Sequence record: PQ571291
DNA: 50,066 bases
From: Escherichia phage EF3-1
Reading direction: 5' to 3' (one strand)
Shown in pieces: positions 25,745-26,960 of the stretch. Made by a program: the position numbers and the translations under genes. The first letter of the stretch is position 1. Each line of letters starts with the position of its first letter. A model generated the notes under the pieces. The model searched no databases. It was not told the DNA's origin and saw nothing but the letters and a program-made list of their open reading frames with translations.

Positions 25745-25774
25745 GGCTGGCATGGTTTACATGCTGGCCTTTTT
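25745..25774 (+). terminator. rho-independent terminator upstream of lysis cassette
   Basis: GGGCTGGCATG-GTTTA-CATGCTGGCC hairpin (two G-U pairs) followed by T5. Confidence 0.5.
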
Positions 25775-25840
25775 GCGTTGTGTCAAATATATTTGAGGGT
25801 TAAAATCAACTCACCTGTTCAAAAAATAAATGGTGATATT

Positions 25841-26056
25841 ATGAAAGAGTTTTTAACTGCGGCGACGTCCAGCACTGGCGGTGCTTCACTAGTCGGTGCC
25901 GCTACTGGGCAACTTTATATTGCTGGCGCTACATTCATTTGCTTTCTTCTTTTTGGCGTATGGGGCGCGTACTGGAAGTATCGAGATAGCAAGGCAATCC
26001 AGGAGGCGCTAAACGATGGCGATCTTAATAAGGCGCTTAGGATTAGGGGGCGATAA
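25841..26056 (+). CDS. holin (pinholin-like, 71 aa)
   Basis: ATG at 25841 (M22 of track ORF); hydrophobic Gly/Ala-rich TM segments and charged C-terminus; precedes endolysin. Confidence 0.65.
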
Positions 26057-26544
26057 TGGGATTAAAAAATAACGTTATATGCGCATCGATCGGGGCTGCT
26101 TTGACGTTGACACCTACACTACTGGAACGAATCGAAGGGATAGAATACGAAGTGTATTACGATATAGCCGGAGTCCCTACAGTATGCAGCGGAATAACCG
26201 GGCCGGACGTCATACCTGGCAAGAAATACACTAAGCGAGAATGCGATGCATTGCTGATAAAACATATCGGCGTCGCTCAGCGATACGTTGACAAGAAGGT
26301 TAAGGTTGAAATTCCGGTAACGATGCGCGCCTCACTCTACAGCTTTACTTTCAACGTTGGTACTGGCGCATTCGGATCTTCTACAATGCTTAAGCTAATC
26401 AATCAGAGTAAGCACAAGGAGGCGTGCAATCAGTTATGGCGATGGGTATACTACTACAATCCAAAAACCAAAAAGCGCGAAGTGTCTAGAGGACTCAAGA
26501 ACCGACGCGCTGAAGAATACGCGTATTGCGTTAAGGAATTATGA
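26056..26544 (+). CDS. SAR endolysin (lysozyme, P21 R-like)
   Basis: Hydrophobic N-terminal signal-anchor-release segment; catalytic E-x8-D-x5-T ([16 protein letters not shown]); strong resemblance to P21 R21. Confidence 0.9.
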
Positions 26545-26945
26545 TGAAACTGAAGAAAGCGTGCATTGCGATTGCAGTGGCTGTTGGTGTTATTTCTCTA
26601 TCCGGTTGCTCGACGGCATCTGCTCTGAGCGGTTTACTTTCTGACTCCCCGGATGTTACTGCGCAGGTTGGCGCTGAGAACACGAAGCAACTGGCGGGAG
26701 TTACTGCAAAGGCCGACGATAAGCGAGAAGTGAAGGTGAGTGATTCAAATATTGGCAAGATTGACTCATCCGTCAAGAAGTCTGTGGAAGTGTCAACCAT
26801 TCAGGCTAACACGGTTAACGCTGAAAGCATCACGGTAACAAAACCGGGGAACTGGTACGATGCAATTGTAGGGTGGACTCTCGTTTTTATTGGCCTGTTG
26901 ATGATTTATTTTTCACTTCGTAAGAACGGAAAAAAAGGAGGCTAA
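26541..26945 (+). CDS. unimolecular spanin (lipoprotein with C-terminal TM domain; T1 gp11-like)
   Basis: Lipobox LSGC after signal peptide plus C-terminal TM helix [15 protein letters not shown]; ATGA-coupled to endolysin. Confidence 0.75.
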
Positions 26946-26960
26946 GCCTCCTTTCTTATT
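26931..26960. terminator. bidirectional terminator after lysis cassette
   Basis: AAAGGAGGC-TAA-GCCTCCTTT hairpin with spanin stop codon in loop; A-run upstream, T-rich downstream; convergent genes. Confidence 0.65.

Follow-up and report, generated by a model that had tools for sequence, protein, structure and literature searches.

A predicted lysis module of holin, SAR-type endolysin and unimolecular spanin in the T1-like Escherichia phage EF3-1

Pinholins of the S21 class open small holes (about 2 nm) that a folded endolysin cannot pass, and the SAR (signal-anchor-release) behaviour of R21, the phage 21 (P21) endolysin, is said to have been established by Sun and colleagues in 2009 and Xu and colleagues in 2004. 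In phage T1, gp11 is the prototype u-spanin, with the wild-type lipobox LSGC, and it complements the lambda RzRz1 defect (PMC6139136), in a manner that depends, according to the literature, on the lipobox. An initial annotation of the locus described here proposed lysis complementation as a test, and for the T1 spanin such a test is already in print (PMC6139136). A periplasmic Cys is present in none of the u-spanins, and the T1 gp11 family is found in cassettes that also encode a pinholin and a SAR endolysin (PMC6139136); proteins are grouped into a u-spanin family at 40% or more identity over 40% or more of the length to a member (Kongari et al. 2018, PMC6139136). The curated T1 record, with a citation of PMID 30135120, labels its three genes “pinholin class 2,” “SAR endolysin,” and “u-spanin,” and a three-gene lysis core is reported in 508 of 522 Drexlerviridae (2026 KanT1 paper, PMC13164509). 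The T1-type SAR endolysin is described as “predicted” in PMC6139136, in PMC13164509 and in the TLS paper, the last of which gives the holin two transmembrane domains (TMDs).

We analyzed the sequence of Escherichia phage EF3-1 (PQ571291) over a stretch of 50,066 nt, referred to as the window, with coordinates given as window positions on the plus strand unless stated. The whole window is a Tunavirus genome (T1-like, Drexlerviridae), about 92-94% identical to the Sfin-1/Chapo-like Tunavirus genomes. The ORF list and the sequence place three tightly coupled plus-strand genes at 25841-26945, with the following features in and around them:

25546-25722: DUF7244 gene, 58 aa, standalone SH3-like (Pfam DUF7244, E = 9e-29)
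25744..25775 (stem-loop 25744-25770), plus strand: intrinsic terminator with an 11-bp stem, a 5-nt loop and a T run, from fold statistics
25778..25806, plus strand: weak, putative sigma-70-like promoter, TTGTGT, 17-nt spacer, TAAAAT, 8/12 matches
ATG 25841 to TAA 26054-26056, plus strand: 71-aa holin, orthologous to T1 gp13
ATG 26056 to TGA 26542-26544, plus strand: 162-aa endolysin of SAR type, orthologous to T1 gp12 and homologous to P21 R21
ATG 26544 to TAA 26943-26945, plus strand: 133-aa unimolecular spanin (134 aa from ATG 26541), orthologous to T1 gp11
26930..26962: convergence hairpin, an A7 run, AAAGGAGGC / TAA / GCCTCCTTT, then CTTATTTG

We hold with high confidence that this cassette is the lysis module of a T1-like siphophage (genus Tunavirus), made up of a holin, a SAR endolysin and a u-spanin acting in three steps. 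The holin and endolysin genes overlap by 1 nt (TAATG), and the endolysin and spanin genes by 4 nt (ATGA) if translation starts at ATG 26541 or by 1 nt if it starts at ATG 26544; the three genes are translationally coupled, and the unit is bounded by a 5′ terminator and by a hairpin at the convergence with minus-strand genes. The holin, endolysin and spanin match PHROG profiles with E = 2e-38, 4e-50, and 4e-45, respectively, values that make chance unlikely. Compared with T1, synonymous changes far outnumber non-synonymous ones in the holin (21:2), the endolysin (30:5) and spanin codons 1-100 (20:2), indicating purifying selection. The ORFs, the PHROG and Pfam matches and this selection confirm the initial proposal that three overlapping genes form one lysis cassette, and the order proposed, holin, SAR endolysin and unimolecular spanin between terminators, agrees with the curated T1 annotation and with the literature. 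Relatives from Nouzillyvirus, Rogunavirus, Eclunavirus, Webervirus, Tlsvirus, and Veterinaerplatzvirus retain the architecture and every diagnostic feature. Gene structure, homology, conserved motifs, and cross-genus conservation are all demonstrated by this analysis. The cassette is already known, being closely related to a characterised one and a near-copy of that of T1; the pinholin, SAR endolysin and u-spanin annotation is present in GenBank and in several papers, which leaves the assignment little weight as a discovery, and its use is to give correct labels to genes often recorded as “hypothetical protein” or “lipoprotein” in related phages.

The spanin has an orthologue of demonstrated function, T1 gp11. 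Of its two candidate starts, ATG 26544 is the one chosen in the curated T1 record, and its spacing from AAGGA (26533-26537) is better than that of ATG 26541. In the resulting 133-aa numbering, the protein begins with MKLKK and a hydrophobic core, followed by the lipobox LSGC with Cys22 and a Ser at +2, and ends with a TMD at about 107-125 (mean hydropathy of 2.23 over 108-125) and a basic tail, RKNGKKGG. A single protein carrying both an LSGC lipobox and a C-terminal TM helix, as first annotated, is thus what the gene encodes. The periplasmic domain is Cys-free, as there is no Cys beyond that of the lipobox. The protein matches PHROG 1804, “Rz-like spanin” (E = 3.7e-45), while a search with NCBIfam returned a sub-threshold match only (21.5 bits vs. 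a cut-off of 80). It is 87.2% identical to T1 gp11 over all 133 residues, which places it in the T1 gp11 family under the grouping rule of Kongari et al., and 100% identical over residues 23-100. The residue at +2 of the lipobox is not Asp, in keeping with sorting to the outer membrane. By analogy, the EF3-1 spanin is predicted to disrupt the outer membrane as T1 gp11 does.

We then considered the boundaries of the unit. The upstream terminator (−19.7 kcal/mol, z = −3.2) closes the exonuclease/DUF7244 transcription unit, and a hairpin followed by a T run lies ahead of the holin gene in all seven other phages compared (T1 and representatives of six further Drexlerviridae genera), the T1 record annotating a terminator at the position equivalent to 25744..25775. 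A terminator ahead of the cassette, with 11 pairs and this z score, is therefore confirmed. At the other end, a stem-loop of nine pairs (26934-26954) carries in its loop the TAA (26943-26945) that is the stop codon of the spanin gene. This hairpin forms whichever strand is folded (plus, z = −3.0; minus, z = −3.8), but its T run is clean on the minus strand only (7 T), where it corresponds to the A run coding for Lys-Lys in the spanin, and is interrupted on the plus strand (TTTCTTATTT). The description of a bidirectional terminator with the spanin stop in its loop holds, with the qualification that the hairpin serves the converging minus-strand genes better than the cassette. In the T1 record this feature is annotated solely on the minus strand, and the AHS24 record has terminators on both strands. 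In six other phages the spanin stop is inside or overlaps the loop of the phage's own hairpin, the stems of AHS24, EcL1, pK8, and BlueShadow being spelled differently from that of EF3-1 and T1; in TH27 the stop lies just ahead of the hairpin. Cross-genus covariation analysis of both terminator hairpins (MAFFT/RNAalifold) gave a weak signal of one and two compensatory pairs from alignments in which the stems had slid, so that conservation was read from the hairpin of each sequence. A promoter scan found no site at threshold in the interval from the upstream terminator to the holin gene. Both hexamers of the weak candidate at 25778..25806 are identical in T1, and TH27 and AHS24 have the equivalent TTATGT-17-TATTAT; the candidate is annotated in none of the phage records compared.

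The holin gene, preceded by a Shine-Dalgarno sequence, GGTGAT, at 25832-25837, encodes a protein that matches PHROG 2877, “holin,” from end to end (E = 2.4e-38, residues 1-71 on profile positions 1-71) and that is 97.2% identical to T1 gp13. Homologues of this T1 type occur in at least 826 phage records, 825 of 826 covering 80% or more of the protein. Three parts can be recognised: an N-terminal segment rich in Gly, Ala, Ser and Thr (residues 4-24), one strong TMD (25-45; mean Kyte-Doolittle hydropathy of 1.65-2.5 across genera) and a charged C-terminal tail. The gene adjoins and is translationally coupled to the SAR endolysin gene, a pairing also found in all seven relatives. Neither the Pfam holin families (E <= 0.1) nor the NCBIfam holin models matched the protein, and BLASTP returned no alignment with the P21 pinholin S21 at E <= 100, using an S21 query that agrees with the phage 21 record over 100% of its residues. 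A dual-start holin/antiholin motif is absent, as the protein begins MKEFL with no second Met near the start; the TLS homologue begins M1RDFLLM7. A 38-aa ORF inside the holin gene (25896-26012), considered as an embedded antiholin or Rz1-style gene, was rejected because stop codons interrupt it in T1 and in all the other genera.

The term “pinholin-like,” used in the initial annotation, is upheld by the pairing and by the annotation of the T1 orthologue, but not by similarity to S21 or by a match to a Pfam holin family. The label “pinholin” rests on the partnership with a SAR endolysin and not on homology. The large T1-type holin family universally carries it from context, and it is still an inference there, as is the presumed small-hole nature of the EF3-1 protein, a point to be kept in mind wherever the tag is used. 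The N-terminal segment is too weakly hydrophobic for a confident TMD call, and may or may not be a releasable first TMD. A different view would be that the holin has a single TMD, is oriented N-out/C-in, and belongs to an independent family that is not S21-like, merely depolarising the membrane enough to free the SAR endolysin. This view, which we consider doubtful, would accommodate the lack of similarity to S21, the fact that TMD-grade hydropathy is reached by residues 25-45 only while residues 4-24 score 0.36-0.71 across genera (0.63 in EF3-1), with 0-2 charged residues in the relatives and two Asp in the TH27 and AHS24 homologues, the missing polar loop between the two segments, and the note “1 transmembrane domain” in both the T1 and the AHS24 records. 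However, segment 4-24 resembles the SAR TMD1 of S21 in composition (76% vs. 63% Gly, Ala, Ser, and Thr) and in mean hydropathy (0.63 vs. 0.64), and an S21-type pinholin is also N-out with one TMD once TMD1 has exited, so that the two pictures converge on the same final topology. The partner is a SAR endolysin in all eight phages examined, a pairing reported for every member of the T1 gp11 spanin family except two (PMC6139136), and both the annotation of the Young laboratory and the TLS paper call the protein a class II pinholin, all of which argues for the pinholin reading.

As regards the endolysin, the results show a muramidase domain like that of T4 lysozyme (GH24; Pfam PF00959, Phage_lysozyme, E = 1.7e-33, 116 bits vs. 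a cut-off of 22.3) that also matches the P21 lysozyme structures 3hde and 3hdf with E of about 1e-33 (8.5e-34 for 3hde). The protein is 96.9% identical to T1 gp12. Its triad, E27-x8-D36-x5-T42, aligns column for column with E35/D44/T50 of R21 (offset +8). The protein had been called very similar to R21: the homology is clear and the triad aligned, but identity is 47% over 129 aligned residues and not near-identity. At the N terminus, K4 is followed by an uncharged segment (7-23) with 47% Gly, Ala, Ser and Thr and a mean Kyte-Doolittle hydropathy of 1.85, such that both the hydrophobic segment and the E-x8-D-x5-T triad first noticed are indeed present. The corresponding segment scores 1.7-2.1 in seven relatives, and the triad, four Cys, and the N-terminal hydrophobic 17-mer are kept in all eight phages compared, the 17-mer being uncharged in six and holding one charged residue in two. 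From these features we infer SAR behaviour for the EF3-1 enzyme, against which counts the length of the hydrophobic stretch, just 17 residues. Endolysins of the P1 Lyz type are controlled by disulfide isomerisation, in which a conserved Cys within the SAR helix attacks the disulfide that cages the active site. Control of this kind through Cys9 was rejected for EF3-1, this residue being Gly in T1 and the segment having no Cys in six other genera. It is very improbable that the N terminus is instead an ordinary cleavable Sec signal peptide leaving the enzyme free in the periplasm: the small residues G13-A14-A15 can be read as a −3/−1 signal-peptidase site, but the hydrophobic core ahead of them has only about six residues, the hydrophobic stretch extends as far as residue 23, right next to the catalytic Glu27, the R21 alignment starts within the hydrophobic segment, and a free active lysozyme in the periplasm would kill the host too early. 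A role for a fourth gene was also weighed, in which the DUF7244 product would be a member of the lysis module and a cell-wall-binding helper of the SAR endolysin. In its favor are the Pfam match itself and the observation that the gene, where present (188 of 522 Drexlerviridae), always adjoins the lysis cassette, an auxiliary lysis role having been proposed (PMC13164509). Yet the gene is on the upstream side of the conserved intrinsic terminator found ahead of the holin gene, it is missing from most of the family, as opposed to the three-gene core in 508 of 522 (PMC13164509), and its product, whose sequence lacks a signal peptide, a lipobox and any hydrophobic segment, would make no contact with peptidoglycan before the envelope is breached; we consider such a helper improbable. 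It is unlikely that the T1-type holin is an independently evolved class, with one true TMD to which the Gly/Ala/Ser/Thr segment is fused loop-free and with topology dynamics or a hole size unlike those of S21, and that, separately, the cytoplasmic SH3-like neighbour has a real, post-lysis role.

According to the preferred model of holin, SAR endolysin and u-spanin, the host Sec system would export the endolysin, whose weakly hydrophobic N-terminal SAR helix would keep the enzyme in the inner membrane in an inactive state, while the 71-aa holin would build up in the same membrane. Triggering of the holin at a programmed time would collapse the membrane potential, upon which the SAR helix would leave the bilayer and the freed lysozyme would refold to its active form, with a Glu-Asp-Thr triad as in P21 R21, and degrade the peptidoglycan. 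[quoted passage not shown]

The closest characterised system is that of T1 (AY216660.1, CPTT1_067-069), in which genes 13-12-11 have the same order, lengths (71/162/133 aa), and start/stop overlaps and share the LSGC lipobox, the catalytic triad and the places of the terminators with EF3-1; the cassettes are 90.9% identical in DNA, and the proteins 97.2%, 96.9%, and 87.2% identical (gp13, gp12, and gp11). In contrast, the C-terminal 34 codons of the spanin have strongly diverged (15 non-synonymous vs. three synonymous changes), and the EF3-1 TMD and tail differ from those of the T1 gp11 allele. Residue 9 of the endolysin, in the SAR helix, is Cys in EF3-1 and Gly in T1, and in T1 the exonuclease gene is separated from the DUF7244 gene by an HNH endonuclease gene, which is absent from EF3-1. 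Shigella phage phi2457T, of the Sfin-1 group (Tunavirus Sfin1), has the same three genes, with DNA 99.2% identical over 25700-26957. It differs in an insertion of about 295 bp, holding an additional minus-strand gene (71 aa), directly after the terminator hairpin, and in a spanin 3′ A run that is one A shorter, as a result of which the spanin ends in EA and not GG; its record labels this spanin just “hypothetical protein.”

Phage 21, the paradigm for pinholins and SAR endolysins, shares with EF3-1 a 71-aa holin gene directly 5′ of a homologous SAR lysozyme gene (S21-R21; 47% identity, same E/D/T triad) and a holin of two-part composition, with a weak Gly/Ala/Ser/Thr-rich segment ahead of a strong TMD. 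However, the holins are not detectably homologous, that of EF3-1 having neither the dual-start antiholin nor the polar loop between hydrophobic segments found in S21, and phage 21 has a two-component embedded Rz/Rz1 spanin where EF3-1 has a single chain. The lambda Rz/Rz1 pair has the same role, the last step of lysis by outer-membrane disruption, and likewise combines an outer-membrane lipoprotein anchor with an inner-membrane TMD. Rz and Rz1 are two polypeptides forming a disulfide-linked coiled coil, whereas the u-spanin is one chain with a beta-rich, Cys-free periplasmic domain, and the two types have no sequence similarity (PMC6139136).

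The initial annotation had proposed three overlapping lysis genes set between two terminators, and reading of the sequence gave the following layout.

Features of the lysis cassette and its borders
25546-25722, plus strand: gene for a DUF7244 protein of 58 aa (Pfam E = 9e-29; PHROG 4788), just upstream of the cassette
25744-25775, plus strand: upstream terminator, a hairpin with an 11-bp stem and a T run behind it (hairpin scan; z = -3.2 versus shuffled controls)
25841 (ATG) to 26054-26056 (TAA), plus strand: holin gene, 71 aa (sequence reading and ORF listing, window 25500-27300)
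26056 (ATG) to 26542-26544 (TGA), plus strand: endolysin gene, 162 aa (sequence reading and ORF listing)
26541 (ATG, 134 aa) or 26544 (ATG, 133 aa) to 26943-26945 (TAA), plus strand: spanin gene (ORF listing)
26934-26954, both strands: downstream hairpin of 9 bp, its 3-nt loop being the spanin stop codon (z = -3.0 on the plus and -3.8 on the minus strand versus shuffled controls)

The genes do overlap: the holin stop and the endolysin ATG at 26056 share one base (TAATG), and the spanin ATG begins within the end of the endolysin gene. An AAGGA at 26533-26537 stands 6 nt from spanin ATG 26544 and 3 nt from ATG 26541, and the curated T1 record starts the spanin at the second ATG, the equivalent of 26544. 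The terminator expected ahead of the cassette was found, and the bidirectional one expected after it held with a qualification: the hairpin folds on both strands with the spanin stop as its loop, but an uninterrupted seven-T run is present on the minus strand only, the plus-strand tail being TTTCTTATTT. “Bidirectional” is thus a reasonable label, though as a terminator the hairpin is stronger on the minus strand, for the genes that converge there. It is annotated on the minus strand only in the T1 record and on both strands in that of phage AHS24, and the rho-independent terminators of the T1 record correspond in position exactly to window 25745-25774 and to the hairpin that spans the spanin stop. 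The A run ahead of this hairpin (window 26930-26945) is A7 here and A6 in Shigella phage phi2457T; combined with a single-base difference in the loop, this leaves the spanin ending in GG here and in EA in phi2457T and T1, although the stop stays in the loop. On the minus strand, the codons for Lys-Lys in the spanin tail read as the terminator's T run. We noted a promoter-like TTGTGT-17 nt-TAAAAT (window 25778-25806, plus strand; 8/12 matches) immediately 3′ of the upstream terminator, under the scan threshold and without annotation in the phage records compared; both hexamers are unchanged in T1, and TH27 and AHS24 have an equivalent TTATGT-17-TATTAT.

At the DNA level, the cassette shares 99.2% identity with phi2457T and 90.9% with coliphage T1. 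In the re-annotated T1 record (AY216660.1), the orthologues carry the names “pinholin class 2,” “SAR endolysin” and “u-spanin.” Each half of the window aligns to Sfin-1/Chapo-like Tunavirus genomes with about 92-94% identity over >90% of its length; the window therefore is essentially an entire T1-like (Drexlerviridae, Tunavirus) genome, and a search across it returned no tRNA genes and no Rfam matches. Protein identities to T1 gp13, gp12 and gp11 are 97.2%, 96.9% and 87.2%, respectively. Synonymous and non-synonymous changes relative to T1 number 21:2 in the holin, 30:5 in the endolysin and 20:2 in spanin codons 1-100, all of which are under purifying selection. Further differences between these phages lie at the borders of the locus. 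In phi2457T, an insertion of ~295 bp carrying a 71-aa minus-strand gene (gp67) follows the terminator hairpin immediately (about 2757-3051 in phi2457T locus coordinates); it is absent from the window (site 26955/26956) and from T1, which makes the convergence point after the spanin an insertion hot spot. The SbcD-like exonuclease and DUF7244 genes are separated in T1 by orf15, an HNH homing-endonuclease gene, plus a terminator (742-1274 in T1 locus coordinates); in this phage and in phi2457T, a spacer of just 63 nt lies between them (window 25483-25545).

The endolysin matches PHROG 7 “endolysin” (E = 3.7e-50), Pfam Phage_lysozyme (E = 1.7e-33) and the solved structures of P21 lysozyme (3hde/3hdf) and E. 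coli prophage RrrD (4zpu), with E about 1e-33. The hydrophobic N-terminal segment and E-D-T triad read initially are both there: residues 7-23, after Lys4, form an uncharged stretch of 17 (mean Kyte-Doolittle 1.85), and E27, D36 and T42 align on R21 E35, D44 and T50. The enzyme had also been called very similar to R21; homology is clear, but identity is 47% over 129 residues. Based on this homology and the conserved N-terminal segment, we infer SAR behavior, a property that the TLS paper and the KanT1 paper (PMC13164509) likewise give as “predicted” for the T1-type endolysin. A cleavable signal peptide is unlikely because the core before the only plausible cleavage site is short (~6 residues) and the hydrophobic segment abuts the catalytic Glu, stopping three residues ahead of it. 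Codon 9 (window 26080-26082) places a Cys inside the SAR helix where T1 has Gly, recalling the regulatory Cys13 of P1 Lyz; no other genus examined keeps it, and a P1 Lyz-type Cys-switch was rejected for this lack of conservation. Cys 44, 63, 124 and 158 are invariant across all eight homologues.

For the spanin, the PHROG hit is 1804 “Rz-like spanin” (E = 3.7e-45). Hydropathy bore out a single protein with both anchors: its lipoprotein signal is of classical form and closes with LSGC, a Ser standing at +2, and a C-terminal TMD at about 107-125 is followed by a basic tail; no later Cys occurs. The prototype unimolecular spanin is T1 gp11, with LSGC as wild-type lipobox; its family was the largest among u-spanins, with members encoded in cassettes beside a pinholin and a SAR endolysin, and a periplasmic cysteine is absent from every u-spanin (Kongari et al. 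2018, PMC6139136). Complementation of a lysis defect, proposed as a check, is already published for this orthologue, since T1 gp11 and a lipobox-swap (AWAC) construct complemented the lambda RzRz1 defect in that study. Residues 23-100 are 100% identical to T1 gp11, and codons 101-134 (window 26844-26945) show 15 non-synonymous and 3 synonymous changes, a divergence that suggests either looser constraint on a part serving purely as an anchor or exchange of the 3′ segment. It fits the anchor-only role of the TMD, the sole requirement placed on it by a J Virol 2018 study as summarized in a review.

The 71-aa holin stood as proposed, with a match to PHROG 2877 “holin” over its entire length (E = 2.4e-38), while its pinholin label is one that T1-type holins have received from context. 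Its hydropathy profile shows a single strong TMD (25-45); the 21 residues ahead of it are 76% Gly/Ala/Ser/Thr, and the tail after it is charged. Several observations speak against a simple S21-type holin: BLASTP gave no alignment with S21 (query 100% identical to the phage 21 record), the Pfam and NCBIfam holin models gave no match, and the sequence has neither a dual start nor a polar loop between its two hydrophobic parts. Moreover, the first part is weakly hydropathic (mean 0.36-0.71) and carries two Asp in two genera, and the T1 and AHS24 records note one TMD, against two in the TLS paper. However, this first part resembles S21 TMD1 both in composition and in hydropathy, and activated S21 likewise has a single TMD with the N terminus outside. 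We consider a functional pinholin probable and a separate single-TMD holin, one still working with a SAR endolysin, rather improbable. An ORF embedded in the holin gene was rejected as a real gene, as it is not conserved.

The module recurs across the family. By tblastn, the holin matched 826 phage records, nearly all at full length, and the KanT1 paper counts the module in 508/522 Drexlerviridae genomes; that paper and the TLS paper describe the same three genes. In all six distant loci compared (Nouzillyvirus TH27, Rogunavirus AHS24, Eclunavirus Ec_L1, Webervirus pK8, Tlsvirus BlueShadow and Veterinaerplatzvirus 12397III), we found the order holin-endolysin-u-spanin, the endolysin triad with its four Cys, an (L/V)(S/T)GC lipobox and a sequence-variable spanin TMD with a basic tail. 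The endolysin N-terminal 17-mer is kept as a hydrophobic, sequence-variable segment, uncharged in 6/8 and with one charged residue in Ec_L1 and pK8. Every relative compared has its own hairpin and T run ~60-90 nt 5′ of the holin start, and the spanin stop lies inside or overlaps a hairpin loop in 6/7 other phages, with stems varying by genus (GGAGGC/GCCTCC, GGAGCC/GGCTCC, GGGGC/GCCCC, GGCGGC/GCCGCC); covariation counts were weak because automatic alignments misaligned the stems. Some “Campylobacter phage” records (e.g., A14b, A16a, A139) carry a T1-type holin at 53-62% identity, and the first half of the window matched 19 records so named; these have the look of coliphage-type genomes of the Drexlerviridae, and their host label may deserve a check.

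The DUF7244 protein is described in the KanT1 paper (2026) as a standalone SH3 domain and possible accessory lysis factor. We find its membership in the module doubtful: its gene sits on the far, upstream side of the conserved terminator, and the protein has no signal peptide or hydrophobic segment for export, which argues against a periplasmic role before lysis. A 67-aa GTG ORF (window 26956-27159, minus strand), unannotated in T1, overlaps the 3′ end of an HTH-protein gene (27068-27475, minus strand) and is probably a mechanical ORF rather than a gene.

Gene structure, homology and motifs were established directly here, whereas spanin function is carried over from the literature on the T1 protein, 87% identical. 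The initial observation is confirmed and its interpretation as a lysis cassette supported. Most likely, the cassette follows the P21/T1 lysis paradigm: the SAR endolysin would pass through Sec and stay inactive in the inner membrane until holin triggering depolarizes the membrane, upon which the SAR helix would exit the bilayer and the enzyme refold and degrade murein. The u-spanin, its lipid anchor in the outer and its TMD anchor in the inner membrane, would then be freed from the murein meshwork to fuse or disrupt the two membranes. As a system the cassette is already known, and the phage that carries it here is closely related to the type phage.
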